Assembly: GCA_034670305.1 (NCBI GenBank)
Contig: JAXMNT010000079.1
Span: 1-20,083 of the forward strand
DNA: 20,083 nt
From: Deltaproteobacteria bacterium
GTDB lineage: Bacteria > Myxococcota_A > Polyangia > Polyangiales > Houyiibacteriaceae
Direction of reading: 5' to 3'
Positions 1 through 19,791 of this stretch are shown here, one piece after another (the stretch's first letter is position 1; each line of letters begins with the position of its first letter). The position numbers and the translations under genes are program-made. Below the pieces are notes generated by a model, which was given only the letters and a program-made list of their open reading frames with translations, was not told where the DNA came from and made no database searches.

Positions 1-40
1 CGCGATGCTCGTCGCGCTGATCAAGCGATCTGACCGCTGA
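1..40 (+). CDS. Possible 3' end of an upstream CDS (partial, ...AMLVALIKRSDR*)
   Basis: The frame starting at base 2 has GC3-rich codons and ends in TGA at 38-40, converging on the leftward operon. Too short to assign a function. Confidence 0.3.
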   Translation, partial: AMLVALIKRSDR

Positions 41-45
41 TCCGC

Positions 46-82
46 GGGCAAGGGCAAAGGCAAGGGCAGGGGCAAGGGGCAG
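46..82. repeat. Short (GGCAAG)-like hexamer tandem repeat
   Basis: Units ggcaag, ggcaaa and ggcagg are repeated about 6 times. Confidence 0.7.
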
Positions 83-124
83 GCTGCGAGAACGCCCTGC
101 GGGCGTTCTTCAGCAACCTGCTAG
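79..124. repeat. Imperfect palindrome ending in CTAG; MITE/REP-like element or bidirectional terminator
   Basis: gcaggctgcg-agaacgccc TGC gggcgttct-tcagcaacctgc-tag: a perfect 9-bp inner stem with imperfect outer arms, lying between convergent genes. Confidence 0.55.
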
Positions 125-158
125 CGGTCGGCGGCTTCGGCTGCGAGTGGGCGGCGAC

Positions 159-309
159 TTCGGCGTCGGCTTCGGCTTCGGCTTCGGCTTCGGCGTCGGC
201 GTCCTCTTCGGATTCGGCTTCGGCTTCGGCTTCGGATTCGGCTTCGGCGTCGGCGTCGGATTCGGCCTCGGATTCGGCGTCGGCGTCGGCGTCGGCCTCG
301 GAGTCGGCC
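159..309. repeat. Intergenic hexamer simple-sequence repeat (TTCGGC/GTCGGC)n
   Basis: About 25 degenerate ttcggc/gtcggc/ttcgga/ctcggc units just downstream of the M81 gene stop. They produce the spurious GFGFGVG and RSRSR ORF segments. Confidence 0.85.
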
Positions 310-320
310 GCCGCGTCGGG

Positions 321-1817
321 TCAGCTGCGCCGGCGTCGGTCCGCGGTCCGCCAACCGGCAGGAGGCGGCTCGGCGAACGGGAACATCGGATCGGTGAACG
401 GCACTTGGGCGCACGCTTCGAGATCCGTCGCGCCTCGGGTTCGCACCGGGATCGCCGAACGCACGTACGGCGCGAAGCCGACCATGAAGTGGAAGAAGCT
501 CTTCACCACCACGATGTCGGCGTCGCGCATGCGCAGCCCGAGCGCGGTATAGAAGCTCGGCCGCAACGTGTAGGGAATGCCGTCGGTGACGACGAGCTGC
601 ACCGACCCGAGATCCAGCCGCACCGCGCGACCGAACGCCCCGAGGTCCGCCCTCGCCCGCAAGTGTCCCTGGATCCGGAGCGGCACGTTGGTCTGCGGAT
701 CCAACCGTCCTCCCACCGTCCGGTCGACGGTGGATCCGAGCGGCGCGTCCCAGAGCGCCTCGACGACGGAGTCGTCTCGAATCGGGACGAACGAGACCAT
801 GTCCTCCACCCGCATCAGCGCTTCGAGCAGCGCCGTGTTCTCACCCGGTGCGCCGGCACCCACCACGTCGGACACATCGGAGAAGAACACACATCCGGTC
901 TTGCGCGCCCACCACCTCCGGCGTGCGACGTCGATCGCCTCGGCCGGTTCCAAGAAGCGTGGCGCGGGTTCGGCGCGGATCGCCCACGCCCGATCGGCGA
1001 CCTCGTCCGCCAACTGCTCGGCGAGCGCTTGGTCGCCGTCTGTGGTGACATGTACCGACCAGCCGAGGTCCTTCGAATCGCTGAAGGGATGCACCGTGAA
1101 GAGGTTCGCGCGCAACACGCGACCATCTCGTTCAAGCCCCTTGAGGTACTGCTTGATCTGTCGCATCGGTGCGAGGAAATCGACGTTCGCGCCCCCGCCA
1201 ATCGCGATCGGCAAGCTGCGCCAGGCGCTCGTCGGGCGAATCTCGCCTCGAATGATCTTCGGCAACAGACGACCCACTTGAAACCCGACGTGCGGAAGAT
1301 CCCGGTGCGGGTTGGTGCGGTACCCGACGACGAGATCGGCCGGGTCGGCTTTCGCTGGGGTCAGCTGCGCGTGCATGTCGTAGGTGATCGCGAGCGGCAC
1401 GTTCGGCGCGATCGCCCGGACGCGGCGCAGCAGCTCCTCTTCCGGCTCCGGGTACCGTCCCTCCGCCCGAATGGAGCCATGCAGCGCCAGGTAGATCCCA
1501 TCGAGCGGCATCGCCCGTTCGAGTCGGCCGGTGAGTTCTTCGAGAAACGTCTCCGCGCACTCGGCCGACATCGGCCCAGACGGGAGCGCCCACGCGCTGA
1601 GCAGCGGCACCCGCTCGACCCCGCGAGGCGTTGCGGCGCGAAACCCGCTCAGCTCCGCGATGGGCGACAGGCCGGGAACCTCGTTGCCGAGCGGGTGGGC
1701 GATCTCTTCGACCGCGGCGCCCTCGTGCAAATGAAACCGCTCGAAGTCCGCCCACGTCGTCTTCACCGGCGAGAAGGAGTTGGTCTCGGTCATCAGACGG
1801 GCGTAGGCGATTCTCAT
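321..1817 (-). CDS. M81 family metallopeptidase (MlrC-like)
   Basis: 498 aa with N-terminal [27 protein letters not shown], a DVSDVVGAG motif and C-terminal DIVVVKS, all typical of MlrC/M81. Confidence 0.9.
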
Positions 1818-3011: not shown

Positions 3012-3042
3012 CGCGTCACCCACGCATCGATCGACCGCGGCG

Positions 3043-4635
3043 TCACAGCTTCGTCTTGGCCCACACGTCGAAGATCGGACGCGGCACGAGCGCCGCAAAC
3101 CGGCTGCTCAACGAACCATGGAGAGGAAACCGAACCACCGGTGCGCCCCGCTCGACGCCGGCGACGAACGCGCGCACCGCTCGGTCCACCGGTTGAATGA
3201 ACGGCATCTCGTCGCAGCACTTCGACTCCGTCAGGCCACTCTCCACGCAGCCCGGTTCGATGAGGGTCAGCCCGATACCGAGTCGTGCGGCATCCGCGCG
3301 CAGCGCATCCGCCAACGCGCGGAGCGCCGCTTTGCTGGCCGCGTAGGGCCCATGCTTCGGATACCCGCGGTCCGCGGCCTGCGCCCCAGTGATCGCGATC
3401 CGAGGCGTGCCCGACTTCGGCATCGCACGCATCCACGCGAGCACCGGGTCGAGGTAGTTCGTCACGCCGAGGTAGTTGGTCGTCATCACGTTGGCCGCGG
3501 ACTCCGCGCGAAAGCCCGCCGCCGTCCAGCGATGGTCCCGCTCCAAAGCGAGCGCATCTTCGCCGCGCACACCGTACCCGCCGGCGTTCAGGTACGCCCG
3601 GTCGAGCCGCGGCCAGCTCGACCGCAACGTCGAGACCACCTCGCGTGCGGCGTCCGCGTCGCGGACATCCGCGGGAAGCACGCGTACCTCACGCGCCCCG
3701 TGCGCGAGACAACGCCGCGCGGTCTCTTCGAGTTCCTCCGATCGGCGCGCCACCAGCGCCAGCTTGGCCCCGGTGAGTGCGTACTGCCGGGCGACCTCTG
3801 CCCCGATGCCACTGCTCGCACCCGTGACCAACACATGCAGCGCCGTGTCGTCCGCGCTGCGCTGGGTGAAGTTGCGTTGCAGGAGCGCGGAGGGACCGAA
3901 GTAGAGCACTGCGTCCTTCACGTTCTCCGACAGGCGTCGCTGGTGACTCATCGTCGGTTTCGTCGCGTAGCTGAGTGAGAGCACCAGTCGCCGCTCCCCT
4001 TTTCCGAGCGGCGACACCGCGTGCCAGACCTTGGAGCCGCAGAAGATCACCGCGCCGCCGGGCGTGGTCTGCAACGAGAGCGCTTGGTTCGCGCGCGACG
4101 GATCGTCCTTGTGGAGTTTCGCCAGAAAACGTTGAGACGAGTCGTCCACGATCGACACGATCATCGTGTAGGAAGTGCCTTCTTCGCAGCCACACGTGTC
4201 GTAGTGGTACTGCATCCCATCGCCGCGTTTCGTGTACACGTACGCGGCGCACGCGTGGTCGTCTTCGGGGTGTTTCAGGTACATCGGCGCACCGACCAGA
4301 TCGCTCATCCAGTCGAGAAACACTTGGCTCTCGTAGAGCGCGACCACGGTGGGCGCCTTCTTCTGCAACGCGCGCCAGCCGATGTGTCCCGCCTTCCGCA
4401 CGAACGGAAGTTTGCTGCGATGCACCTTCAGCGTAGGCAGCGTGAGCTCGCTGCGAAGTCTGGCGAGCATCGCGGGTTCGACGAAGTCCGGCACGAACTC
4501 GAACTCGTTCTCCGCCGCGTATCGGCGGCGGATGCCTTCTTCGTCGAGTGCGCCAAAACTCCGACGGAGCGACGCGTCCACCCACGCTCGCGTAGACGGT
4601 TCGGACGAGGACTCGGTTTCGATCACGGCGGCCAT
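3043..4635 (-). CDS. Fusion of an N-terminal 2OG-Fe(II) oxygenase and a C-terminal short-chain dehydrogenase/reductase
   Basis: The N-terminal half has the HYD...WHAV...RRLVLSLSY facial-triad and 2OG-binding pattern. The C-terminal half has VTGASSGIG, LNAG and YAASK. One uninterrupted ORF; ATG at 4635 lies 4 bp after the upstream stop. Confidence 0.85.
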   Translation of the reverse strand: MAAVIETESSSEPSTRAWVDASLRRSFGALDEEGIRRRYAAENEFEFVPDFVEPAMLARLRSELTLPTLKVHRSKLPFVRKAGHIGWRALQKKAPTVVALYESQVFLDWMSDLVGAPMYLKHPEDDHACAAYVYTKRGDGMQYHYDTCGCEEGTSYTMIVSIVDDSSQRFLAKLHKDDPSRANQALSLQTTPGGAVIFCGSKVWHAVSPLGKGERRLVLSLSYATKPTMSHQRRLSENVKDAVLYFGPSALLQRNFTQRSADDTALHVLVTGASSGIGAEVARQYALTGAKLALVARRSEELEETARRCLAHGAREVRVLPADVRDADAAREVVSTLRSSWPRLDRAYLNAGGYGVRGEDALALERDHRWTAAGFRAESAANVMTTNYLGVTNYLDPVLAWMRAMPKSGTPRIAITGAQAADRGYPKHGPYAASKAALRALADALRADAARLGIGLTLIEPGCVESGLTESKCCDEMPFIQPVDRAVRAFVAGVERGAPVVRFPLHGSLSSRFAALVPRPIFDVWAKTKL

Positions 4636-4639
4636 GCGG

Positions 4640-5698
4640 TCACGCTTTCGCAAAGTCGCGGGTGAGCTCCGCGAACGAACGGGGTCGGGGCGGGAAGCCG
4701 GTCATGGCGTCGACGAACCCTCGACAGGAGGTCAGGCAATCGCCGCAATGGCTGAGTTCGTGGCTGTGGAGTCGCTCTTCGACGAGCGACCAGGGTTCTC
4801 GCACCAGGTTGCCCGAACGAAGATGAAGCTTCTCGATGCAAGGAGACACGTCGCCGAGGTGATCGATGTTGAAGAACCGCTCCCCCGCCCAACAACGACG
4901 GGGCGTCTCTCCGCGCAAGAACGGATCGATGCCTTCGAGGTAGTGCGAGAAGCTGATGAAGTGCGGGTGGCGCGCCTTGAGTTCGAGCAGCCGCGCACCG
5001 GTGCCGATTGGTGGCAACGACTTGCCGCCCTCCGCCCGCCCCAGACCTTCGCGCGAGAGCAACGTGACCTGGTGTCCGACCCCGAGCGCTTTCGAGACCT
5101 CGAGCAAGCGCGGCAAGTCGCGGTGGTTGTCGTGCATCACGACGGACATCAAGAACACCTGCCGAGCGCCCGAGGGTGCGGTCGCCCGCAAGATCTCGGC
5201 GGCCCGCAGCGCGGCTTCGAAGGTCCCCGGTTTGCCGCGGTGCGCGTCGTGTACCGCGGGGTCGGCGTAGTCGACCGAGATCCCAATAGAGTCGAGGCCC
5301 GCGTCCCAGAGCCGGCGCGCTCGGTCGTCGGTGACCCGCCAACCGTTGGTGAACAGGATGGGGTGGTGGTGCTGCGCGAACGACTCGACGATGTCGAAGA
5401 TGTCGTTGCGGAGAAGCGGTTCGCCTCCCTCCAGACTCACGATCAAGGAACCGGCCGCGGCCAGCTTGTTCGCGATGGTCGCGAAGTCCGCGGTGGTCAG
5501 CCCGTGATCTCGGTGGGCCGGGTTCTCCCAGAACGAGCAGAACCCGCAGCTGAGGTTGCAGCGGTTGCTCACCTGGACGATGCAGTGAACCGGCCGACCC
5601 GAGACGAGCCCCAGCGTGAAGCGCCCGGCTTTGCTCGAAGTCCGCGCCGCGTTTCGAAGAGACCTCGCGGCGGTCCGAAGCGTCTCCGCCGGCTTCAC
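4640..5698 (-). CDS. Radical SAM protein with a C-terminal SPASM/twitch-like domain
   Basis: CNLSCGFC (CxxxCxxC), GGEP and FTNG, then C-terminal CWAG...GDVSPC...CGDCLTSC. The GTG start at 5698 overlaps the aminotransferase stop (GTGA). Confidence 0.88.
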   Translation of the reverse strand: MKPAETLRTAARSLRNAARTSSKAGRFTLGLVSGRPVHCIVQVSNRCNLSCGFCSFWENPAHRDHGLTTADFATIANKLAAAGSLIVSLEGGEPLLRNDIFDIVESFAQHHHPILFTNGWRVTDDRARRLWDAGLDSIGISVDYADPAVHDAHRGKPGTFEAALRAAEILRATAPSGARQVFLMSVVMHDNHRDLPRLLEVSKALGVGHQVTLLSREGLGRAEGGKSLPPIGTGARLLELKARHPHFISFSHYLEGIDPFLRGETPRRCWAGERFFNIDHLGDVSPCIEKLHLRSGNLVREPWSLVEERLHSHELSHCGDCLTSCRGFVDAMTGFPPRPRSFAELTRDFAKA

Positions 5699-7047
5699 GA
5701 CTTCGGTCCCAGCGCCGAGCGCGCGAGGTCCCACGCGGCGCGACCCAGGGTGCGCGGGACCGACCGGATGCGGGTCGCGAGCACGCGTTCCATCGCCGCG
5801 AGGAACCCATCGATCTGTTCGAGCGCAATGGTGAGCGGTGGTTCGACCCGCACCACCGAGGGATCCAGCGTGCAGACCTGCGTGACGTACCCGGCTTCGA
5901 GCAGGCCGATCACCAGTTGTTGTGCGACCAGCGCCTTGGCCAACTCCGGCAGCGGCACCCGCACTTCGATGCCCCACAGGAGCCCCCGGCCCCGCACCGC
6001 GTGTATGGACGCGTGTTTCGCGGCCAACGACCGAAGCCCCGCCTCCAGGTGAGCCCCCTTGCGACGTACCATCGCCGGCGCATCGAGCGCGTCGAGCGTC
6101 CACAGCGTCGAAAGCGCCGCCGCACATGCCAGCGGCCCGCCCCGGTAGGTGGCGCAGTGCAGCTCATGATCGGCGAGCGACCCGTAGGCGGCCGCCCAGA
6201 GTTTCTTCGAAGTCACGTACGCCCCGATGGGCATCGCGCCACCGGACAACGCCTTCGCCAGCACGAGCACGTCCGGCACCACGCCTTCGTCTTCGAGCGC
6301 GAACATCGGACCGGTTCGCGCGAGCCCGGTCTGCACTTCGTCCAGGATGAGCACCGTGCCGTAGCGCGCGCACAACCGCTTCGCCTGCGCGAGGTAGTTC
6401 GGCGGCGGAAGCCGCACGCCGCCTTCGGCTTGAATCGGTTCGAGCACCACGGCGGCCACATCGCGTCGCCGGAGCCGGACCTCGAGCGCGCCGAGATCAC
6501 CGAACGGGATCTCGCTGGCCTCGAGCAACGTGCCGAACTTCTTCTTGCGACCATCGCTCGTCACCGAGAGCGCACCGAATGTGCTCCCGTGGTAGCCGCG
6601 CTCCGCATAGACGAACGCGTCGCGGTGGGTGACGGCGCGCGCCAGCTTCAAGGCGCCATCGACCGCTTCGCTCCCCGAGGATCCAAAAAAACTCACCTCG
6701 AGCGGGTCCGGCAAGCGGTCCGCGAGTTCGCGGGCGAGCGCCGCGGGCAGTGCCTCGGGCGCCATCAATACGAAACTCGGCGTCTTCGCTTGGCGCACGG
6801 TGTCCATGGCTTGCCAGACCTCAGGGGCGTGGTGGCCGAGCGGCACGCTCCCGTAGCCCGCGAGCATGTCGGTGTACGCGTTCCCATCCGCGTCGTAGAG
6901 GGTGCAGCCTTCGCCCCGCACGAACTGACGTTTGAATCCCATCAGACCGAGCGCCTCGACCATCTTCGGGTTGAGGTGCGCCGCCGTCTCCTGCTCCACG
7001 TCGGTCTGGGCGGCGCCGAGGATCGCGTCGATGCGTTCGGAGATCAT
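5695..7047 (-). CDS. Class III PLP-dependent aminotransferase (ornithine/putrescine/HpnO-like subgroup)
   Basis: 450 aa with SGSEAVD, GYHG, EPIQAEGG, DEVQTGLARTG and LAKALSGG (PLP Lys). Confidence 0.92.
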   Translation of the reverse strand: MISERIDAILGAAQTDVEQETAAHLNPKMVEALGLMGFKRQFVRGEGCTLYDADGNAYTDMLAGYGSVPLGHHAPEVWQAMDTVRQAKTPSFVLMAPEALPAALARELADRLPDPLEVSFFGSSGSEAVDGALKLARAVTHRDAFVYAERGYHGSTFGALSVTSDGRKKKFGTLLEASEIPFGDLGALEVRLRRRDVAAVVLEPIQAEGGVRLPPPNYLAQAKRLCARYGTVLILDEVQTGLARTGPMFALEDEGVVPDVLVLAKALSGGAMPIGAYVTSKKLWAAAYGSLADHELHCATYRGGPLACAAALSTLWTLDALDAPAMVRRKGAHLEAGLRSLAAKHASIHAVRGRGLLWGIEVRVPLPELAKALVAQQLVIGLLEAGYVTQVCTLDPSVVRVEPPLTIALEQIDGFLAAMERVLATRIRSVPRTLGRAAWDLARSALGPKS

Positions 7048-7490
7048 GGCGCACGCTCCGCGGAGGTCGGCTTCGACGCGAGCTGCGCCGCGACCACCCG
7101 CGCGAAGGTGAGCACGGAGAACAGCCGAGGGATCTCGCGCGGCCGAAGGCCCGCTTCGATCCGCTGTGTGGCTTCCGGCAAGAGCGACCGCAGCCGCTCG
7201 AGCCCAGCGTCCGACACGACCCCATCGGGCGCGAACTCCTCGTCCCGCATGCCGCCCCGAGCAGCCTGCTCCAGCGCACCGCGGGTGATCTCGACGTCGA
7301 ACCGATCTTCCAGCTCGAACACGATGTCGAGGAAGTCGAGCGACTCGGCGCCGAGTTCGTCCACCAGGTTGTGCTGCAACTCGACCGCGTCGAGTGACTG
7401 GCCGAGCGCTTTCGCGATCACCTCCCGCACGCCGAGTGCGAGATCGGCATCCACCTGCCCCGCCGCCACTGCGACCAACGCATCGTTCAT
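7044..7490 (-). CDS. Acyl carrier protein, oversized (148 aa) with an internal/C-terminal insertion
   Basis: Phosphopantetheine site DELGAESLDFLDIVFELEDRFDVEI. The ATG at 7490 overlaps the nitroreductase stop (ATGA). Confidence 0.9.
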   Translation of the reverse strand: MNDALVAVAAGQVDADLALGVREVIAKALGQSLDAVELQHNLVDELGAESLDFLDIVFELEDRFDVEITRGALEQAARGGMRDEEFAPDGVVSDAGLERLRSLLPEATQRIEAGLRPREIPRLFSVLTFARVVAAQLASKPTSAERAP

Positions 7491-8185
7491 GGCTTCTCCC
7501 ACCCGATCCATCGGGTCACCTTCTCCGCCGACCGACGCGGCGGAGCGATGGGCGCCTCGTCCGGCCATCCGATCGCGATCGCGCCAAGCATCTCGAACGG
7601 CGGTCGAATCTCAAGCAGCTGTTCGATTGCGGGTCGCGCGATCATCGGCCCCGCCATCCAGGTCGCCCCCAGACCTTCGGCCCGTGCTTGCAGCAAGAGC
7701 GCCATCACACTGGCGGCGACCCCGCATCGATCCGGAAGCATGTCGCCTGGCAGACTGTAGGTGGACGGGTCTGCTCCTGCCGAGGACAGGAAGCGGGCCA
7801 CCAAGTCCGCGTGGGTCCGCACCTGCGGCACGACGACCACCTCGGCCGAGTCGAGCGGCTCGTGAAAGAAGTCTCCGTAGGCGCCCCATTCGGCCGCGTG
7901 CCGTCCCGTCGCGATCGTTTGGTCGAGCCGCTCAGTGGCTTCCCGGACGCGATGCACCAACGCGTCTTTCGTGGCGCCGCGCACGACGTCAAAACGCCAA
8001 GGCTGGCGGTTCGTACTCGAAGGCGCGCTGATCGCCGCATCCAGAAGCCGTTCGACGAGGGTCCGCGGCACGGCGCGGCGCTGAAACCGGCGAACGCTCC
8101 GACGTCGACGCAACCACTCGAGGTGACTGGGCCCGTCGAACGGAGGCTGGCTCTCCAGCTCGAGGGTGGGCGGCGAGGGCTTCAC
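7487..8185 (-). CDS. Nitroreductase-family flavoprotein
   Basis: RRRSVRRF, APSSTNRQPWRF, LLLQARAEGLGATWM and IAIGWP motifs. Confidence 0.92.
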   Translation of the reverse strand: MKPSPPTLELESQPPFDGPSHLEWLRRRRSVRRFQRRAVPRTLVERLLDAAISAPSSTNRQPWRFDVVRGATKDALVHRVREATERLDQTIATGRHAAEWGAYGDFFHEPLDSAEVVVVPQVRTHADLVARFLSSAGADPSTYSLPGDMLPDRCGVAASVMALLLQARAEGLGATWMAGPMIARPAIEQLLEIRPPFEMLGAIAIGWPDEAPIAPPRRSAEKVTRWIGWEKP

Positions 8186-8946
8186 GGAGGTGGTCTACCA
8201 AGCCCGGCGGATTGTCGGAAGCCCTCCAGCGCACACGCGACCAACGGCTCCACCGAACCGAGGTCCCCGAGCGTCGCACGCAGGCCTGGGCGCCACGTGT
8301 GCAGCGCCTCGGTTGCAGCCGCCGTGTCGAGACCGCCGTCGAAGAGCAGCGCGGCCGCCGCCGCACCACAGGCCGCCTCCTGAGCGACGAGCACTTCCGG
8401 CACGATCCGGTCGTCGGCCCCGACCACGAGCGCGTGGCCCACGTCCCCCGACCCCAGCGCGCGCGCGGCCGCGGCCAGCGCCTGCGCACCCGAGGTCGGT
8501 CCACCGAACGTCGCAACGTCGCCGCTCAACTCGAGCTCTGCCCCCAACAAGGACTGAAGCCCGGTCGGCAGGTATCGGAGCATCCACAGCGGGTGCATGC
8601 GTCCGAGTCCGTGCGCGTGGGGCGCGTCGTGTGCGCTCCGTTGGTGCTCCATCGCCTTGAGGAGCGTGGGCCAGTCCGCACGCAGCGGATGGGTGGCGAC
8701 GTACAGACCCGTGCGCGGAGGCATCGGCGACGCGCGGTGGAGCGAGCGCGCTTCGGCCAGCGCGTGCTGGTCGATCGAGCTCAAGAACCGCCACGACCTC
8801 GGCGCGTCGGGCCGTGCGGACACCGGAGCGACGCGCGGCCGGTACATCGGATGAGGCCGCAAAAGAGAGCGGCCGGAACGCACCGCATCACAGGTCGACT
8901 CGAGGTCGCCCGCGGCCGTCACGATCGACGCGGCGATCCACTTCAT
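8182..8946 (-). CDS. Ketosynthase-like non-catalytic partner (chain-length-factor-like), short (254 aa)
   Basis: KS N-terminal-like fold (RTGLYVAT, HPLWMLRYLP, SGAQALAAAARAL, ALVVGAD) with no catalytic Cys or His motifs. The ATG at 8946 overlaps the KS stop. Confidence 0.75.
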   Translation of the reverse strand: MKWIAASIVTAAGDLESTCDAVRSGRSLLRPHPMYRPRVAPVSARPDAPRSWRFLSSIDQHALAEARSLHRASPMPPRTGLYVATHPLRADWPTLLKAMEHQRSAHDAPHAHGLGRMHPLWMLRYLPTGLQSLLGAELELSGDVATFGGPTSGAQALAAAARALGSGDVGHALVVGADDRIVPEVLVAQEAACGAAAAALLFDGGLDTAAATEALHTWRPGLRATLGDLGSVEPLVACALEGFRQSAGLGRPPP

Positions 8947-10163
8947 CGGCTGGTCCCGAGCAGCACCGACGCGTTCTGTCCCCCGAACCCGAACGCATTG
9001 CAGAGCACCCGCCGCAGCGGTGTCTCTTGCGGCGCCTGCACCAGATTCAGTGGACCGATCTCGTGATCGACGGTCTCGAGCCCCGCGGTGCCTGGGACGA
9101 GCCCTTCGCGAAGCGCGAGCAGACACGCGGCGATTTCGATCGCGCCACTCGCCGCCATGGCGTGGCCGATGGCCCCCTTGATGGACGACACCAACGCCGC
9201 CTCGCCCACCGCCCGACGGATGGCCGTGGCCTCGGCCACATCGTTGAGTGGTGTGCCGGTGCCGTGTGCGTTGACGTAGTCGACCGAGGACCCGTCGTGA
9301 TCGCGCAACGCAACGCGCATCGCGGCCTCGGCGTAGCGGCCCTCGGGGTGGGGCGCGCTCGGCCGGTAGGCGTCCTGGGTGACGCCGCCCCCGAGGACAT
9401 GGGCCCACACGGTCGCGCCGCGGGCGCGCGCCGAGCGCTCGGACTCGACCAAGAACATCGCGGCGCCCTCCCCCATCACGAGCCCATCGCGGCGGGCATC
9501 GAACGGACGGCACACGCCGGACGCGGAGAGTGTGCCGAGACGCAGCATGCCGCCGAGTCCCATCGGGTCGATCATGGAATCCGCTGCGCCACACAGGACG
9601 CGTTCGGCGCGACCGGACCGAACCCAGCGCGCGGCACGCAAGAGCGCGATCACACCACCCGCGCAGGCATTCGAGGACGCGAACGCGGGGCCTTCGTGGC
9701 CGAGGGCCTCGCATACGGCGCGCACCGGGGCGTCCACGCTCCCTCGGAGAAGAAGCGGTGGCGTGGCACCGGCGGCACGCTCGAAGTCGACTCCGGTTCC
9801 GTCCCAGAGCGGGTCGAAGGCCGGCAGCATCGCGCGCTCCACGCCACACGCGATGAGGATGGCGTCGTGGGCGGCGAGCGCGGTCGGGCCGGGCGCCGAA
9901 CCCGACGTCGCGTCCGCATCCAGCATCGAATCCGGCGACGATGCCGATGCAAGACACTCGCGCGCCGCGGAGAGGGCGAAGTCGATCCGGCGGTCGGGAC
10001 CTGGGGATCCGTCGGGGACCTCCGCGACGCAGGGTACGCCGAGCGCTTCGTTCAGCGGTCCGGATCGGGTCGCCACCCGGTGCGCGCGCAAGCCGTCCTC
10101 CAGCACCGCGAGACCGGATCCAAACGCGCTGACGACCCCCACGCCGGTGACGACGACGTTCAT
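8943..10163 (-). CDS. Beta-ketoacyl-ACP synthase (FabF/KS-alpha-like), catalytic triad intact
   Basis: VVVTGVGVVS, SNACAGG (Cys), NAHGTGT (His), KGAIGHAM (His) and NAFGFGG. The ATG at 10163 overlaps the upstream stop. Confidence 0.93.
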   Translation of the reverse strand: MNVVVTGVGVVSAFGSGLAVLEDGLRAHRVATRSGPLNEALGVPCVAEVPDGSPGPDRRIDFALSAARECLASASSPDSMLDADATSGSAPGPTALAAHDAILIACGVERAMLPAFDPLWDGTGVDFERAAGATPPLLLRGSVDAPVRAVCEALGHEGPAFASSNACAGGVIALLRAARWVRSGRAERVLCGAADSMIDPMGLGGMLRLGTLSASGVCRPFDARRDGLVMGEGAAMFLVESERSARARGATVWAHVLGGGVTQDAYRPSAPHPEGRYAEAAMRVALRDHDGSSVDYVNAHGTGTPLNDVAEATAIRRAVGEAALVSSIKGAIGHAMAASGAIEIAACLLALREGLVPGTAGLETVDHEIGPLNLVQAPQETPLRRVLCNAFGFGGQNASVLLGTSR

Positions 10164-11152
10164 CGGAGCCGCTCGATCCGCACGTGGCCCCACGCGCCCG
10201 ACGCCGCGTCCCGGGTTCGAATGGTGGCGACGCCGGAGACGTCGAGGCGCGCCAGCGCGAGACACCACGCGAGGGCAGGCGACGCCGCGAGCGTCGCACC
10301 GAACACAGCCTGCGCGTCCACGTCGGCGACGCGCGGCGGAAGGGTGGACCGGGGTGCGTCGACCACGAACAGATCATCCGGAGGAACCGGCTCGGATCCA
10401 TCGCACAGGCGCGCCTCGAGGAGCCGGCCGATCGGCCGCTCCGCCACCGAACGGAGCCGGAGGAACGCAGCGCCCTCCGACAGCCAGCCGAGGTCGGCCA
10501 CCGAGGCCTCGCGCGTCCGTTCGATTCGCGTGATCGGATGGTGTCCGGTGTCCGCGCCACCGATGAACGCCTCGGGTGCTCCGTCTTCGAGCGCGTCGCA
10601 CGCGTCGGCGAGCGCCATCACCGTGCCGAGCCCGCGCGAGAAGGTCGCCTCCCCCGGTCCATGCACGCTGGCTTCGATCGCGGCGTGGCAGAGCGTGAAG
10701 CTCGGAAGGCTCTGGAAGGTGCGGAGCGGATTGAACGACCGGAGTCCACGTCGACGGAAAGCCGGGAGCGAGAAGGCGCCGTCCACCCGGCTGGAGCCGA
10801 CCACCCGATCGAGTTCGGCGCGTTCCACCCCGGAGGCCCCGACCCCGACGAAAAGCGCGGCGCTTGGATCTGCGGGCTCGGCTTGCAACATGAGCCGAAT
10901 CGCAGCGACCGACAGCGCCGCCGCACGACTCACTGCTTTGGCACCGCGGCCGTCCACGCGCAGGTCCTCTGGCAGGTCGATGGGTGCGGGGTCTCGCGCG
11001 ATCGGCAGCGCCCTCGCGAGTCGTCCGAGCGCGACGGTGTTGTCCCTGAGAATGTGGTCTACCGGATCCGCCGCGACCCGGGCCGGTCCCGCGCTCCCGT
11101 CGCAGAAGATGGCTGGCACCGAGACCCCCGAAGCCGAGACGATGAAGGTCAC
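10160..11152 (-). CDS. Ketosynthase-like non-catalytic partner (chain-length-factor-like), 330 aa
   Basis: KS-like segments (AALFVGVG, NPLRTFQSLP, MALADACDAL, IGGAD, SEGAAFL, FGATLAAS). TFSRGLG sits where the catalytic Cys would be and there is no HGT motif. The GTG at 11152 overlaps the KS stop. Confidence 0.78.
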   Translation of the reverse strand: MTFIVSASGVSVPAIFCDGSAGPARVAADPVDHILRDNTVALGRLARALPIARDPAPIDLPEDLRVDGRGAKAVSRAAALSVAAIRLMLQAEPADPSAALFVGVGASGVERAELDRVVGSSRVDGAFSLPAFRRRGLRSFNPLRTFQSLPSFTLCHAAIEASVHGPGEATFSRGLGTVMALADACDALEDGAPEAFIGGADTGHHPITRIERTREASVADLGWLSEGAAFLRLRSVAERPIGRLLEARLCDGSEPVPPDDLFVVDAPRSTLPPRVADVDAQAVFGATLAASPALAWCLALARLDVSGVATIRTRDAASGAWGHVRIERLR

Positions 11153-12375
11153 GACACCCGCTCCACCCGCACCGAGACGTTGCCGCCCCCGAAGCCGAAC
11201 GCGTTCACGAGGGCGGCCTGCACGGATGCGTCCCGCGTCTCGCGCAGATGCCATCCCGGACAACCCGCGTCGGCTTGCTCGAATCCAACGGTCGGGAACT
11301 GTCGCCCGCGCGCGGTTCCCCCAGACGACACCGCTTCGATGGCGCAGAGCAATCCAACGGCGCCCGCCCCTGCGATCCAATGACCGAGCGCACCCTTCAC
11401 CGAACCGATCGGCACATCGTCCCCGAAGAGCCGATAGAGCGCCCGCGCTTCGGACGAGTCCCCTTTCGCGGTGGCCGTGCCATGGGCTTGCACGTACTGA
11501 ACAGGCTGCCCTCCAAGCGCGGTGCGCATCGTGGCTTCGGCCACCACTCCGTCTGGGTCGGGATCGGTCAGGTGGTGGGCGTCGAGGCCGCGGCCCCACC
11601 CGGCCACGCGGACAGGAGTCGATGGCCCACGCGTGCCCCCGAGCACGACGCACGCCGCGCCTTCCCCGAGCACGAACCCATCGCGGCGACGGTCGAAGGG
11701 GCGCGCGACTCCGGAGGGACTCAGCGCGCCGAGCCGATCGAATGCACCGAAGAGGAGCGGGTCGAGCCCGGCCCCCACCCCCCCACAGATCGCAGCGTCG
11801 CATTCCCCGGCCGCGATCGATCGAACGCCTTCCACCACCGCGGCGAGTCCACTGGCGCACGCCATCGCGGGCGCGCCGACCGGCCCATCGAACCCGAAGC
11901 GGGCGGCCACGGCGGCCGCCGGTCGAAGTTCGTCTGAGTGTTGCGCGCGCTGCATCACCGCTTCGCCCTCGCGCGCGAACGCCTCGTGGTCGAACGTGCG
12001 GCCGCCGCCCGCAGCTCGGCTGAGGTCGAATGCGAACGGGTAGCGCGCGAACCCGGACTCCGCGCCGATGAACACCCCTACCCGCTGGGTATCGAGCCCC
12101 GCTTGCGCCCACGCTTCTGTGGCCGCGAGCCACGTCATCGCCACCCGGGGTTCCAGCATGGCGCCGTCCTCGGGCGGACGTTCGCTGTTTCTGCGCTGCA
12201 CTTCCGCGGAGACTGTCTTGCTGCACACCGGCGCCCCGGTCTGACAGTCGAACCCTCGGACATCGAAGCGCTCGACCCGCGACACACCCGTGGCCCCGGC
12301 GGCGAGCCGGTCGGCGGTCGTCGTCCAGTCCGGACCGAGCGCCGACACACACCCGACCCCGCGAACCCAGGTCAC
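11149..12375 (-). CDS. Beta-ketoacyl-ACP synthase (FabF/KS-alpha-like), catalytic triad intact
   Basis: GVGCVSALG, MACASG (Cys), PFDRRRDGFVLGEG, QAHGTAT, KGALGHW and NAFGFGG. The GTG at 12375 overlaps the dehydratase stop. Confidence 0.92.
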   Translation of the reverse strand: MTWVRGVGCVSALGPDWTTTADRLAAGATGVSRVERFDVRGFDCQTGAPVCSKTVSAEVQRRNSERPPEDGAMLEPRVAMTWLAATEAWAQAGLDTQRVGVFIGAESGFARYPFAFDLSRAAGGGRTFDHEAFAREGEAVMQRAQHSDELRPAAAVAARFGFDGPVGAPAMACASGLAAVVEGVRSIAAGECDAAICGGVGAGLDPLLFGAFDRLGALSPSGVARPFDRRRDGFVLGEGAACVVLGGTRGPSTPVRVAGWGRGLDAHHLTDPDPDGVVAEATMRTALGGQPVQYVQAHGTATAKGDSSEARALYRLFGDDVPIGSVKGALGHWIAGAGAVGLLCAIEAVSSGGTARGRQFPTVGFEQADAGCPGWHLRETRDASVQAALVNAFGFGGGNVSVRVERVS

Positions 12376-12839
12376 CGCCCCGCGCGCTCCAGGCCGTGCA
12401 GCCAGACTTCTCGGCGGCGACGGTGGGCTTCGAGAAGCGCGTCCGCATGGCCAGTCTCGAACACGAACGTCAACGTGGCGCAGACGACCTCGACGCCGTC
12501 CACCTGCCCGCGGCAGACCACCCGGGCGCGCTCGGCGTTCCCTTTGCCCGCCGCTTCCAGCACCAGTCGATCGCCCGGCCGGACGGGTGCGGAGAAACGC
12601 GCCGCGTCGACGCCGACCAGGACCGCCAACGCCGCCCGTTCGCCGCCCGCCGCAGCGGCGTCCTCTTCTGCGAGCAGTCCACTGAGTTGCGCGAGCGTCT
12701 CGATCAGGAGCGCGCCGGGATAGAGGGGCGCACCCACGAAGTGATCCGCGAAGACATCCTCGCTCGCGCTCACGCACTTGAGCCCCCGCGCGAAGCCGGG
12801 GCCGAGTTCTGTCACACGGTCGAGCAAGACGTATCGCAC
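12372..12839 (-). CDS. 3-hydroxyacyl-ACP dehydratase, FabZ-like hotdog fold
   Basis: LLDRV, KCVSASE, DHFVGAPLYPGALLIETLAQ (catalytic His/Glu) and RFSAPVRPGD. Confidence 0.92.
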   Translation of the reverse strand: MRYVLLDRVTELGPGFARGLKCVSASEDVFADHFVGAPLYPGALLIETLAQLSGLLAEEDAAAAGGERAALAVLVGVDAARFSAPVRPGDRLVLEAAGKGNAERARVVCRGQVDGVEVVCATLTFVFETGHADALLEAHRRRREVWLHGLERAGR

Positions 12840-12937: not shown

Positions 12938-14650
12938 ATGGACTGCTGCGAAACCGACGCGAGCCCGCGCCCCGACCGACCCCACACGTTTCTGCTGCAT
13001 GCCCTGTCGACATGCACCCACTGCGGAGAGACCCGCGAAGGGCGCGTGGTGCGGCGGGGGTCGACCATCCACACGCTCGTCTATTGCGCCGAGTGCAAGA
13101 AGCAGTCGGAGCACGACACCCACCCCGACGCGGATGCCTACTTGGCGGAGCTCGTCGCGCGCGCCCCATCCGAACCACAGGCCGAGGAGGTCGAGTTCAA
13201 ACGCACCACCTCCACCTGTCCCTCGTGTCTCGCGCTCGTCGAAGCCAAGGTGGTGATTCGCGACGGCCAGGTCTTCTTTCGCAAACACTGCACGGCCTGC
13301 GACGAGACCACCCAAGCGATGGTCTCCGAAGACGCGGACTACTACGTGAAGGCCTACACCTTCGCGGCCGCGGGGACCGAGCCACTCCACTTCGGCGCGC
13401 CGGTGGAGCACGGCTGCCCGACCGATTGCGGCACCTGCAACGACCACGAGCAGCACACCTGCCTTCCGATCATCGAGGTCACCGACCACTGCAACCTCGA
13501 GTGCCCGATCTGCATCGTGGACAACCAGTACTCCTGGCACATGCCGGTCGAAGAGTTCCGCACCATCATCGATCAGCTCGTGCGCGCCGAAGGCCAGCTG
13601 GAATCGGTCGCGATCAGCGGCGGCGAGCCGACCAGCCACCCGCAGATTCTCGACCTGCTCGAAGCCGCCGACAGGCCAGAGATCGGCCGGGTGTTTCTGA
13701 TCACCAACGGGCTCCGGCTCGGCAAGGACCGGGCGTTCGCGGAGGCGATCAAAGCGCGTGGAAGCTACGTCGGACTCCAACTGGATGGGTTCGACGCCGA
13801 GACCCACGAGATCGTGCGCGGCCGGGACCTGACCGCGGAGAAGGGGCGTGCGCTGGCGGTGCTCGAAGAACTCGACATCCCCACGCAGATCATCTTCGTC
13901 GCGGTGAAGGGCGTGAACGACCACCAGATCGGCGACGCGGTGAAGCTCTTCCTCGAGAAGGATTTCATCCTCTCCCTCAACTTCCAGCCGGTCGCCCACA
14001 CGGGCCAGGGCGGTGGCAAGTTCACCCACGACCCGATGGACCGGTTGACGATCCCCGGGGTCATCCGCGCGATGGAGGCGCAGTCCGACGGCGCGCTGCG
14101 CACCTCCGATTTCCATCCCCTGCCGTGCTCGCACCCGCAGTGCGTCTCGCTCACGTACTTGTTGCGGCTCGAGGACGGACGCCACGTGCCCTTCCCGCGT
14201 TTCGTCGACTACACGAAACACAGTGAGCTGCTTCGAAGCAGCGCGACCCTGCCGGCGACCTCGCAGATCCACGACGCGATGCTCGAGGTCATTCACGATG
14301 TGTTCGCGAACGAAGACGACGTAGAGGACGGCGAAGCGATCCTCGGCGCACTGCGGCAGAGCGTGAAGGCGATGTTCCCGACGCGGCCGATGACCGAGCG
14401 CGAGAAAGTGCGGATCGGCGAGGCCCACGCGAAGTCGATCTTCCTGCACGCCTACATGGACCGGCACGACTTCGACCTCGAGCGGCTCCGCAAGTGTTGC
14501 CACCACTACGCGCAGCCGGACGGCCGCGTGATGCCAGCCTGCGGGTTCAACATGTTCCACCGGGGCGCGGCCAAAGGCACCGGCACGACGCGAGCAACGT
14601 GGGCGAAAGATCCCTTCTCGGGCAAACCGCAGTTGCCGGTCGTCTCGTGA
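12938..14650 (+). CDS. Radical SAM protein of the tetraether synthase (Tes/GDGT-MAS, MJ0619-like) family with a tandem N-terminal rubredoxin-like module
   Basis: TTSTCPSC-x20-CTAC rubredoxin-like module, GCPTDCGTCNDH auxiliary-cluster motif, VTDHCNLECPIC radical SAM motif, SGGEPT, TNG, CSHPQC and C-terminal YMD..DFDLERLRKCCHHYAQPDGRVMPACGFN. This order matches my recollection of the Tes family. Confidence 0.88.
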   Translation: MDCCETDASPRPDRPHTFLLHALSTCTHCGETREGRVVRRGSTIHTLVYCAECKKQSEHDTHPDADAYLAELVARAPSEPQAEEVEFKRTTSTCPSCLALVEAKVVIRDGQVFFRKHCTACDETTQAMVSEDADYYVKAYTFAAAGTEPLHFGAPVEHGCPTDCGTCNDHEQHTCLPIIEVTDHCNLECPICIVDNQYSWHMPVEEFRTIIDQLVRAEGQLESVAISGGEPTSHPQILDLLEAADRPEIGRVFLITNGLRLGKDRAFAEAIKARGSYVGLQLDGFDAETHEIVRGRDLTAEKGRALAVLEELDIPTQIIFVAVKGVNDHQIGDAVKLFLEKDFILSLNFQPVAHTGQGGGKFTHDPMDRLTIPGVIRAMEAQSDGALRTSDFHPLPCSHPQCVSLTYLLRLEDGRHVPFPRFVDYTKHSELLRSSATLPATSQIHDAMLEVIHDVFANEDDVEDGEAILGALRQSVKAMFPTRPMTEREKVRIGEAHAKSIFLHAYMDRHDFDLERLRKCCHHYAQPDGRVMPACGFNMFHRGAAKGTGTTRATWAKDPFSGKPQLPVVS

Positions 14651-15387
14651 CGCTGCTGCAGGGCCGCATGGCGCTCGTGACCGGCGGGTCGCGCGGACTC
14701 GGTCGCGCGCTCTGTGAGGTCTTCGCGCGCGAGGGCGCCGACGTGGCGTTCAACTACGCGAGCGACGACGAGGGCGCGCTCGAGACCACGCGGCGCATCG
14801 AAGCGCACGACCAGAGGGCGTTTCCGAAGAAGGTCTCGGTGACCGATCGCGCGGGTCTGCGGGCGTGGGTGAAGGAACTGGAATCCAGCGATGTGGCGAT
14901 CGACATTCTCGTGAACAACGCGGGCATCGGGGAGGTGTTGCCACTCGCGCTGATGGAGGAGTCCGACTGGGACCAGATGATGAACGTGCACGTCAAAGGT
15001 GCGTTCTTGACGAGCCAAGCGGTGCTGCGCGGCATGATCCGCCGGCGCCGCGGGACCATTCTCAACGTCACCTCGCTCGCCGGCGTGCGCATGATGAAAG
15101 CGCCAGTGCATTACTGCACCGCCAAGGCCGCACTCCGTGGGTTCACCGAGTCCCTCGCGAAAGAGATCGGACACTACGGCATCACGGTGAACGCGATCGC
15201 CCCGGGACTGCTGGACGAAGGCGTCGGCGATCAGGTGCCGGCCGAGAAGCGCGCCGAGTACCTCACGTTCTGCGCGCTCGAGCGGCTCGGCACGAGCGCA
15301 GAAGTCGCGGAGACGGCGGCCTTCCTCGTCTCCTCGCGCAACACCTACATGAACGGCGCAACCGTGGTGCTCGACGGCGGCGTCTGA
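14647..15387 (+). CDS. fabG: 3-oxoacyl-ACP reductase (FabG-like SDR)
   Basis: VTGGSRGLG, LVNNAGI, VTS, YCTAK, VNAIAPG and LDGG. The GTG at 14647 overlaps the radical SAM stop (GTGA). Probably a cluster-dedicated paralog. Confidence 0.88.
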   Translation: MTLLQGRMALVTGGSRGLGRALCEVFAREGADVAFNYASDDEGALETTRRIEAHDQRAFPKKVSVTDRAGLRAWVKELESSDVAIDILVNNAGIGEVLPLALMEESDWDQMMNVHVKGAFLTSQAVLRGMIRRRRGTILNVTSLAGVRMMKAPVHYCTAKAALRGFTESLAKEIGHYGITVNAIAPGLLDEGVGDQVPAEKRAEYLTFCALERLGTSAEVAETAAFLVSSRNTYMNGATVVLDGGV

Positions 15388-15388
15388 G

Positions 15389-16258
15389 GTGCGTCGCGCC
15401 CTCCGGTTCGGGGTCTACCCAGCAAGCGTGGCGGCGGTGCTCTTCGGGACCCACCACCTCGTGCGCGCCGGCGTGCACCCGGCGATCGTGCTCGGCGTGG
15501 GCGGCCTGGTGTTCGTCGTCTTCCTGGCCTTCTTGGAACGCGTCGCGCCGTTCGAACCGACGTGGGCCGAAGCCCGCAACGACGTGCGCACGGACATCGC
15601 GCACGGCGTGCTGACGTGGAGTCTGATGCCCGCGCTGCTCGAGCCCTGGCTCGTGGCCGGCCTGGGAGCACTCGCCGCCCATCTCTCGAACCACGGGGCG
15701 CTCTGGCCGGCGACGATCCTGCCCGAACCGCTCGGGTGGCTCGAACTCCCCACCCAGGTGGTGCTCGCAGCGCTCGTGAGTGAGTTCGGAACCTACGGTC
15801 TGCACCGCGCCATGCACCGCGTCCCCTGGCTGTGGCGGCTGCATCGCGTGCACCACTCCCCGTCCCGCTTGTACTGGCTCAACGGGGCTCGGTTTCATCC
15901 GCTGGACCTCGCGCTCTCCCTTGTCGTGCAGCTGTCTCCGCTGGTGCTGCTCGGGACCCCATCTCACGTGATCCTCCTCTTCACCGCCTGGACCAGCATG
16001 AACGCGTTCTTTCGACACTCGAATGTGCACGTCTCGCTCGGCTGGCTGAACTACGTCGTCTCCATGGCGGAGGTGCACCGCGTGCACCACGAACCGTCTC
16101 GCCGTGCCTACAACTACGGCGCCCTGCTCTCCGTTTGGGATCTCGTGTTCCGAACCTTCAGGTTTCCGGCGGAGCCCGTGCGTGCGGTCGGTTTGCCGGA
16201 GACCGACCGCGTCAGTCCGACCTACCTCGGACAGCTCTGGGGTCCCTTCCAGCACTGA
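15389..16258 (+). CDS. Membrane di-iron fatty acid hydroxylase / sterol desaturase family protein
   Basis: Hydrophobic segments plus His boxes HRAMH, HRVHH, FRHSN and HRVHH, and NYG...WDLVF. Confidence 0.9.
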   Translation: MRRALRFGVYPASVAAVLFGTHHLVRAGVHPAIVLGVGGLVFVVFLAFLERVAPFEPTWAEARNDVRTDIAHGVLTWSLMPALLEPWLVAGLGALAAHLSNHGALWPATILPEPLGWLELPTQVVLAALVSEFGTYGLHRAMHRVPWLWRLHRVHHSPSRLYWLNGARFHPLDLALSLVVQLSPLVLLGTPSHVILLFTAWTSMNAFFRHSNVHVSLGWLNYVVSMAEVHRVHHEPSRRAYNYGALLSVWDLVFRTFRFPAEPVRAVGLPETDRVSPTYLGQLWGPFQH

Positions 16259-16310: not shown

Positions 16311-18149
<1,839 letters not shown>

Positions 18150-19586: not shown

Positions 19587-19664
19587 CGAGAGGAACCTAG
19601 ATTCGGACGCGACCAAGGGCAGTGCGGCGCCACACGTGACCGCCCTCACGGTATTTATTGGCAA

Positions 19665-19791
19665 GACGGGCCTGGCCCGCTTCGCGGGACTGGCGGCCCT
19701 AATTCGGCGTCCAGAGCACATCGACGTGCTCGCCGCCTGAGGTGGCGACGCGGAAGGAGCGCTTGAGGACACTTGGCGGCTGCGCGCGGTC
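19665..19791. repeat. 127-bp structured direct repeat, copy 1
   Basis: Identical to 19957-20083 and contains several hairpins. Confidence 0.95.

Follow-up and report, generated by a model that had tools for sequence, protein, structure and literature searches.

What does a bacterial relative of the archaeal enzyme GDGT-MAS do when its gene lies among genes for building acyl chains? The question is raised by a 20,083-nucleotide contig of a Deltaproteobacteria bacterium (assembly GCA_034670305.1, contig JAXMNT010000079.1; GTDB lineage Myxococcota_A, Polyangia, Polyangiales, Houyiibacteriaceae), which we analysed over its whole length and call the window. At positions 12938..14650 on the plus strand it encodes a 570-residue radical S-adenosylmethionine (SAM) enzyme of the Tes/GDGT-MAS superfamily, named TesH here. 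Bacterial Tes homologues are already in print, and the cluster context of TesH is the main result of this study. As reported below, its fold, its ligands and its gene neighbourhood show that a Tes-superfamily enzyme is fixed, across phyla, to a private chain-building system that depends on an acyl carrier protein (ACP). TesH probably remodels the carrier-bound chain of this cluster rather than acting as a true tetraether-lipid synthase.

The TesH reading frame is real: its start (ATG, 12938) and its stop (TGA, 14648-14650) were both read directly in the sequence, orthologues share the same initial "MDC", and the signal from GC content at third codon positions (GC3) agrees with the frame. Pfam identified the Radical_SAM domain in residues 179-337 (7.4e-22, 78.7 bits, gathering cutoff 29.5), preceded by Zn_ribbon_HMPTM (PF23545) in residues 88-121 (4.2e-12, 45.9 bits, gathering cutoff 27), which is the PF23545 plus PF04055 architecture of the Tes/TrsS/HMPTM superfamily. 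GDGT-MAS is the sole close solved structure. The phmmer search aligned query residues 84-543 with residues 20-498 of the 7TOL chain (5.6e-62), and the runner-up was MoaA at 2e-6. An AlphaFold2 model of TesH, built from a 101-sequence alignment, reached a mean pLDDT of 95.1 and a pTM of 0.94. Foldseek matched this model to 7TOM at E 1.2e-37 over 498 columns, with the runner-up at 4e-9. An earlier note on this DNA, made from the sequence alone, had proposed superposing such a model on the GDGT-MAS structure. VIA-align superposed model residues 83-570 on residues -2..494 of the 7TOM chain with 445 residues aligned, an r.m.s.d. of 2.8 Å and a Z of 46.9, followed by 7TOL (Z 44.4) and then MoaA (Z 19.8). 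Because the match covers the whole chain, all four GDGT-MAS domains are present in TesH, including the C-terminal cluster domain. The sequence and structure matches bear out the view of the earlier note that the protein is a bacterial superfamily member with all four metal sites populated.

The genes around TesH are those of a chain-building pathway. A FabG-like 3-oxoacyl-ACP reductase of the short-chain dehydrogenase/reductase family (SDR1; 14668..15387, plus strand; TIGR01830 209 bits, below the cutoff of 298), whose ATG was read directly, begins 17 nt past the TesH stop codon. On the 5' side, an intergenic gap of 98 nt separates TesH from a divergent, minus-strand operon led by a FabZ-like dehydratase (12372..12839; FabZ models 85 and 83 bits, under their cutoffs). 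Nine genes, from the FabZ-like gene through a second radical SAM enzyme, form a translationally coupled series with eight consecutive ATGA/GTGA start-stop overlaps. Following the FabZ-like gene, whose stop is overlapped by a GTGA, the operon encodes the ketosynthase KS1 (11149..12375), a chain-length-factor-like (CLF-like) partner without a Pfam hit (10160..11152), the ketosynthase KS2 (8943..10163), a second, short CLF-like partner of 254 residues (8182..8946), a nitroreductase-family flavoprotein (7487..8185; PF00881, 3.7e-25), an ACP of 148 residues (7044..7490; PP-binding 5.5e-9; model pLDDT 87), a class-III aminotransferase (5695..7047; best model PigE, 399 bits, cutoff 850) and the second radical SAM enzyme (4640..5698; best NCBIfam matches to the AhbD, WgkB and NirJ models). 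Both ketosynthases carry the catalytic Cys-His-His residues in the motifs ACASG/ACAGG, HGT and GH, none of which occurs in either CLF-like partner; the first partner has no catalytic Cys or His, and the second is likewise without the ketosynthase catalytic residues. With its predicted KS/CLF pairs, an ACP, a dehydratase and a ketoreductase, the locus is a type II cluster resembling those of fatty acid synthases (FAS) and polyketide synthases (PKS). The ACP is about twice the usual length. Its C-terminal extension of ~70 residues is helical and highly conserved (60% mean column identity in 30 orthologues); in a fold search, the first ~55-60 residues of the protein match ACPs at E 3e-3 or weaker, and the extension gave no convincing match. 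A further plus-strand gene of the fatty-acid-hydroxylase family, most like the ornithine-lipid hydroxylase OlsE (148 bits, cutoff 475), lies at 15389-16258, 3' of the FabG-like gene. The window is the entire contig (C79), and so the cluster may extend past either end.

The association is conserved well beyond this contig. The synteny sample comprised 80 loci retained of 100 confirmed matches in species-representative genomes, labelled as Myxococcota (Polyangium, Kofleriaceae, Haliangiales, Archangium, Hyalangium, Sorangium) and Burkholderiales (Massilia, Telluria), and the denominators given here count the loci with enough flanking sequence. A FabG-like gene lies directly downstream of TesH in 75/75 loci (anywhere, 75/75). 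FabZ occupies the same divergent place as in the window in 61/69 loci (anywhere, 63/69), and the window-like place is likewise held by KS1 in 57/63 (60/63), CLF1 in 54/61 (58/61), KS2 in 54/59 (56/59), CLF2 in 45/55 (49/55), the nitroreductase in 41/52 (46/52) and the ACP in 35/50 (39/50). The aminotransferase was found in the window-like place in 20/49 loci and anywhere in 36/49, and the second radical SAM enzyme in 11/48 and 15/48. An OlsE-like homologue occurs in only 6 of the 80 loci, and in only three of them does it share its window position 3' of the FabG-like gene. In the P0125 locus of an Oligoflexia metagenome-assembled genome (MAG), the genes form one co-directional run in the order ACP, FabG, x, TesH, nitroreductase, FabZ, KS, CLF, KS, CLF and SDR. 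This fixed association with ACP, KS/CLF, FabZ and FabG genes strongly suggests that the substrate of TesH is acyl and not isoprenoid, as the earlier note had supposed.

Five more distant relatives (L168-L172; 32-47% identity) were taken from genomes of the same phylum. A FabG-like gene stands beside the Tes-like genes in four of the five, further FAS-type genes accompany three of these (L168, L170 and L172), and two to three tandem Tes-like paralogues are found in four of the five. In L168, three tandem Tes-like genes (5537-10076) precede two SDRs, FabZ, KS, nitroreductase and ACP. L170 combines three Tes-like genes (3017-4480 and 7854-10729) with an aminotransferase, a second radical SAM enzyme and FabZ. 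On its 6.3-kb contig, L171 carries two Tes-like genes (2161-5000) and two SDRs; L172 has an SDR beside a single Tes-like gene, with a KS 2.3 kb off. The remaining locus, L169, is taken up below.

How far TesH resembles GDGT-MAS at its metal sites was judged against MJ0619, the enzyme of the 7TOL and 7TOM structures, in which the PDB chain numbering is the native numbering plus 20 (checked on C9 and on the Tyr of CCIHY). MJ0619 is reported to hold a rubredoxin site C9X2C12X20C33X2H36, an N-terminal auxiliary cluster, [4Fe-4S]N, bound by C73, C77, C80 and a His, a CX3CX2C radical SAM cluster, and a C-terminal cluster, [4Fe-4S]C, with the labile ligand Met439, which is completely conserved in 1000 archaeal homologues; Tyr459 lies 4.2 Å from the substrate (PMC9433317). 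We counted ligands in a 101-row alignment comprising the clade of TesH itself (23 rows), Tes (5), TrsS (4) and others (69).

The N-terminal part of TesH differs from that of GDGT-MAS. The CxxC-x20-CxxC motif listed in the earlier note is present, but it occurs twice in tandem, as C26xxC29-x20-C50xxC53 and C94xxC97-x20-C118xxC121. The second copy belongs to the rubredoxin-like domain (13178..13375) homologous to that of GDGT-MAS, in which C94, C97 and C118 match the rubredoxin cysteines of MJ0619. The fourth ligand is Cys121, making a Cys4 site where Tes has Cys3His: the residue is Cys in 23/23 rows of the TesH clade and His in Tes (5/5) and TrsS (4/4). The first copy lies in an extra zinc ribbon of residues 13-80 (12974..13177), a domain that repeats the zinc-ribbon/rubredoxin domain in tandem. 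Residues 13-80 and 81-146 align by BLASTP over 46 residues ungapped with 30% identity (E 2e-6), and the order of strands and helices in the model is the same in both. This extra ribbon is present in 22/23 rows of the TesH clade, 0/5 of Tes, 0/4 of TrsS and 1/69 of the other rows.

The two cluster sites that follow are kept. The [4Fe-4S]N motif (13415..13447) reads C160PTDC164GTC167NDH170, that is C160-x3-C164-x2-C167-x2-H170, and is nearly invariant in the 101 sequences; the radical SAM motif C185-x3-C189-x2-C192 (13490..13513) reads C185NLEC189PIC192. For the C-terminal cluster, C402, C520 and C535 are near-invariant across the 101 sequences (C402 is Cys in 91/101 rows), and from this conservation we take them as the probable three Cys ligands. 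C402 closes the motif C397-SHPQ-C402 (14126..14143), whose extra Cys397 is present in 23/23 rows of the TesH clade, 0/5 of Tes and 3/4 of TrsS. The other two ligands are found in the region H504-AYMD ... C520-CHHY524 ... C535 (14447..14542). Cys521, the second residue of the "CC" pair in this region, is shared by 23/23 rows of the TesH clade and by only 2/5 of Tes, and Tyr459 is retained as Tyr524 (Tyr in 23/23). The position of Met439 is taken by His504. The TesH clade has His in 23/23 rows, Tes has Met in 4/5 and TrsS Met in 4/4, and the 69 other rows contain His (41), Lys (7), Met (5) and others. HMMER and both MAFFT alignments agree on this correspondence; one pairwise BLASTP dissents by opening an 8-residue gap within the preceding strand. 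Three places before the invariant (M/Q)-D, the Tes-model protein P0260 has Met and TesH has His. The Met of "YMD", Met507, aligns to Met442 of MJ0619. Among the diverged tandem paralogues of the distant relatives, only L168:5537-6925 of those examined has Met at the Met439 position, the others having His.

The claim of the earlier note that every metal-binding motif is kept therefore holds for the radical SAM cysteines, for the three Cys and His170 of [4Fe-4S]N and for C402, C520 and C535, but not for the rubredoxin site, with Cys121 for His, nor for Met439, with His504 in its place. Most of its motif list is present and needs three corrections, namely two ribbons, a Cys4 rubredoxin site and His504 for Met439. 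Its YMD-x10-CCHHY-x9-C is also there, with spacers that are in fact 11 and 10 residues long, each one more than written. The alignment with MJ0619 that it called for places the three [4Fe-4S]C cysteines and Tyr459 (Tyr524) in correspondence, but equates the "YMD" Met with Met442 and not with Met439. Its argument for coupling from the retained Met, the CC pair and the Tyr fails, as the Met439 position is His and the second Cys occurs in only 2/5 of Tes. Nor does the Tyr park the first radical, as the note had it: in GDGT-MAS this radical is kept on the cluster in the form of a C-S bond, and the M439A, Y459F and Y459L variants of MJ0619 keep robust activity (PMC9433317). Neither Met439 nor Tyr459 is therefore diagnostic of coupling.

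TesH is outside the Tes equivalog and belongs to a separate bacterial clade of the Tes/GDGT-MAS superfamily. Its best NCBIfam scores are 261.1 bits against TrsS (NF045646, cutoff 490) and 255.5 bits against Tes (NF045702, cutoff 450), and among 90 full-length representatives five pass the Tes model, four the TrsS model and 81 neither. A word-indexed search gave 1493 relatives of TesH. The best 120 of these 1493 are 61-71% identical to it, except P0002, a 438-residue fragment that is 99% identical. In a library clustered at 50% identity, 410 proteins match TesH at E <= 1e-30, and beyond its own cluster and P0122 (57%) the identity of full-length matches falls to 44%. A quick maximum-likelihood search (101 rows, midpoint root) gathered the 23 rows of the TesH clade on one branch with an SH-aLRT of 100 and a stem of 0.45 changes per column. 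Its sister is P0125 (40% identical to TesH; from the Oligoflexia MAG, 37.5% GC), and Tes (5 rows, SH-aLRT 97) grouped with TrsS in the opposite half of the tree. TrsS, a radical SAM (seleno)protein, resembles TesH in giving the top NCBIfam model, in its short form without the Tes insert and in having Cys at the C397 position in 3/4 rows, but it groups beside Tes, away from TesH, and carries Met where MJ0619 has Met439 and Val where it has Tyr459. We found no published function for TrsS, only a table entry in PMC13188914. The earlier note had predicted that annotation pipelines would call the protein a "radical SAM protein" or a pterin dimethyltransferase, and such names do appear on orthologues in public sources: the best 120 relatives, where they bear a name, are called "radical SAM protein", "7,8-dihydro-6-hydroxymethylpterin dimethyltransferase" or generic radical SAM superfamily, and one of them "tetraether lipid synthase".

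On balance, we favour a reading in which TesH tailors the acyl chain made by its own cluster by using radical chemistry on an sp3 carbon and probably creating a C-C bond. The cluster would assemble an acyl or polyketide chain bound to its own ACP, and the 5'-deoxyadenosyl radical of TesH would abstract hydrogen from one of the chain's unactivated sp3 carbons. The C-terminal [4Fe-4S] cluster would then hold or oxidise the resulting radical, as in GDGT-MAS, and a new C-C bond would result. Such a bond could link the tails of two chains or cyclise a single one. The product is probably amine-bearing wherever the aminotransferase is present. We infer the coupling step by analogy with the only characterised relative. 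More tentatively, the pathway might make an undescribed class of lipids or polyketides whose chains, carried on a private ACP, are joined at unactivated sp3 carbons by a Tes-type enzyme. The product might be a tail-to-tail dimer, which would yield a long α,ω-bifunctional (amino or carboxy) "bola" molecule, or else a carbocycle, and the relatives whose clusters encode two or three Tes-like enzymes would form several such bonds. If so, Csp3-Csp3 radical coupling would be carried from archaeal membrane lipids into bacterial carrier-protein-based biosynthesis.

Several observations weigh against this reading. The ~20-residue insertion ahead of HxxC in true Tes rows is missing from TesH, and His504, Cys397 and Cys521 near the C-terminal cluster mean that the cluster may be fully ligated and serve as an electron relay only, in which case a chemistry unlike the sulfur-parked coupling in GDGT-MAS would be favoured. 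These residues, together with Cys121, the absent insert and the separation from Tes, leave room for other reactions. As an association, synteny is compatible with a substrate bound to the ACP, with a free one or with one that is part of a lipid already. The ACP, a short query searched at E 1e-10, was found in only the 35/50 loci mentioned (39/50 anywhere), and in L169 the 19 kb examined contain two Tes-like genes (7036-10013) but neither a FAS-type gene nor any other protein of the window. In the literature, we found no experiment on any bacterial Tes homologue, and PMC11868695 describes their function as unconfirmed.

It is possible, though we doubt it, that TesH has the same place in the cluster with a non-coupling chemistry, for example desaturation, insertion of sulfur, ring closure through C-O or C-N, or epimerisation, the C-terminal cluster only relaying electrons. 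The displaceable Met is replaced by His504 throughout the TesH clade (23/23), Cys397 and Cys521 (23/23 each) are extra possible ligands, and the clade stands far from Tes and TrsS on its 0.45 stem. The relatives with two to three diverged paralogues per cluster, only one examined of which keeps the Met, suggest a division of labour, and a sulfur-containing intermediate is documented for GDGT-MAS itself (PMC9433317). Against this, TesH and GDGT-MAS superpose throughout the C-terminal domain, the three Cys ligands included, and MJ0619 M439A still couples (PMC9433317), so that loss of the Met need not alter the chemistry.

We consider it unlikely that TesH is a membrane-spanning-lipid synthase, which would fuse ordinary (iso-)acyl phospholipids at their tails to give iso-diabolic acid or precursors of brGDGTs (glycerol dialkyl glycerol tetraethers of the branched type), with the FAS-like genes only supplying fatty acids. 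Zeng et al. (2022) proposed this role for 456 bacterial Tes homologues (PMC8941075), E. coli phospholipids were bound in the pockets of GDGT-MAS (PMC9433317), and the gene for the OlsE-like lipid hydroxylase adjoins the FabG-like gene in the window. However, this last arrangement recurs in few loci (OlsE-like gene in 6/80, placed as in the window in three). Housekeeping lipid remodelling has no need of an ACP of its own, of two KS/CLF pairs, of a nitroreductase or of the aminotransferase that is often present. The gene is patchy, with 8 of 301 genomes in an even sample of the phylum matching TesH at E 1e-100, its own genome included; among the good-quality genomes the count is 7 of 273. Of the other 300 genomes sampled, G147 alone holds the form of the TesH type, and the remaining six matches begin at query residue 65-91. 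A TGA seemingly inside the G147 orthologue was considered as a selenocysteine candidate and rejected, since it is the stop of that gene. The genome of the window (7.9 Mb, 105 contigs) has a single Tes-family gene. According to PMC13159169, the (iso-)diabolic-acid producers screened outside Acidobacteria were without Tes homologues (Sahonero-Canavesi et al., 2022), and Tes homologues occur in only 3/14 iso-diabolic-acid-making acidobacteria, and Mss was shown to carry out the reaction. A brGDGT-type role is a poor fit to this patchiness, to a dedicated set of ACP, KS and CLF genes and to the absence of correlation that the same authors reported. The inherited annotation as a class D radical SAM pterin methyltransferase is scarcely credible. 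It has the database name "7,8-dihydro-6-hydroxymethylpterin dimethyltransferase" and a Pfam domain named after HMPTM in its favour, but Lloyd et al. could not reproduce such an activity for MJ0619, which has a narrow hydrophobic lipid tunnel (PMC9433317), and pterin or methanopterin genes were not seen among the genes of the window.

Among known systems, GDGT-MAS/Tes (MJ0619; 7TOL, 7TOM; NF045702) shares with TesH the fold over residues 83-570, the rubredoxin-like domain, the [4Fe-4S]N Cys3His, the radical SAM cluster, the three-Cys C-terminal cluster and the Tyr at 459. TesH differs from it by the duplicated zinc ribbon, the Cys4 rubredoxin site, His for Met439, the lack of the ~20-residue insert and a setting of ACP, KS and CLF genes instead of archaeal ether-lipid genes. 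The reaction proposed for TesH is of the type ascribed to Mss of Thermotoga and Thermoanaerobacter, a radical SAM enzyme joining two acyl tails (PMC13159169, PMC13459092). From its description, however, Mss is only remotely related to Tes and acts on ordinary membrane fatty acids. The anammox "Cluster I", proposed for ladderane synthesis, has the same design as the TesH cluster: a private ACP (amxACP), a FabZ (amxFabZ) and a KS/CLF-like pair (the FabF/FabF-mut heterodimer) accompany a radical SAM enzyme that is presumed to modify the chain (bioRxiv 10.64898/2026.05.19.726425). As described there, it differs in a cobalamin-dependent radical SAM enzyme and a phytoene-desaturase homologue, with no Tes-like enzyme mentioned. 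The highly reducing type II PKSs of aryl polyene, ishigamide and cispentacin (Amc) likewise combine KS/CLF pairs, FabZ- and FabG-like partners and a free-standing ACP. Matches to them are weak (AmcF 186 bits, cutoff 325; AmcE 35 bits; FlxB 184 bits, cutoff 340) with no model reaching its cutoff, and PDB sequence searches with KS1 and KS2 returned generic FabF matches only, uninformative for typing. A cispentacin cassette was considered and rejected on these Amc scores and because the published myxobacterial cassette, found in ten Myxococcaceae strains, lies in nine of them beside nonribosomal peptide synthetase genes (PMC13445942).

The placement of TesH also bears on the use of bacterial "Tes homologues" as genomic markers for producers of branched GDGTs, the base of palaeoclimate proxies (PMC8941075, PMC11868695). 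A looser screen for Tes homologues is in print (E < 1e-50, identity > 20%). In a single BLASTP comparison, as distinct from a database search, the TesH clade and the Tes-model-passing protein P0260 are 27% identical with E 6e-59, and the clade would probably pass that screen. Since TesH, by its genomic setting, serves a private acyl-chain pathway, such screens probably overcount. A literature search, with supplements outside its scope, found no paper on this clade, its cluster or any Tes-like enzyme with a KS/CLF cluster; Supplementary Fig. 4 of Zeng 2022 and Supplementary Fig. 5 of Lloyd 2022 may already include the clade. With cultured carriers such as Massilia atriviolacea, M. aquatica, M. 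rubra, Polyangium fumosum and Archangium violaceum, and with a compact, conserved cluster whose core measures 12-14 kb, TesH is a tractable entry to the role of the bacterial superfamily members. Its His-for-Met exchange and Cys4 rubredoxin site are natural variants for probing how the C-terminal cluster handles the substrate radical.

The remaining genes of the window lie on either side of the core cluster. Beyond the second radical SAM enzyme, the minus strand continues with a fusion of an N-terminal HalD-like/2-oxoglutarate-Fe(II) oxygenase (PF23169, 3e-7, by profile search) to a C-terminal SDR (3043..4635), a possible agent of chain hydroxylation or halogenation. The last genes of this run are an LCAT-like α/β hydrolase (1851-3098), with homologues in only 2 of the 80 loci, and an MlrC/M81-family peptidase (321-1817), with homologues in none of the 80. 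On the other side, a plus-strand frame at 16104-19766 matches Pfam NAD-GH at 4.8e-98 and is antisense to an Hsp70 gene (16311-18149, minus strand; 1.2e-187). The GC3 phase favours the Hsp70 strand, and the NAD-GH frame is therefore probably not a gene. The nearest relatives of this Hsp70 paralogue, at 70-73%, come from MAGs labelled Polyangiaceae or Polyangiales. Further along the contig is BoxB, the benzoyl-CoA 2,3-epoxidase subunit (18162-19772, minus strand; 718.9 bits, cutoff 499), which is unrelated to the cluster.

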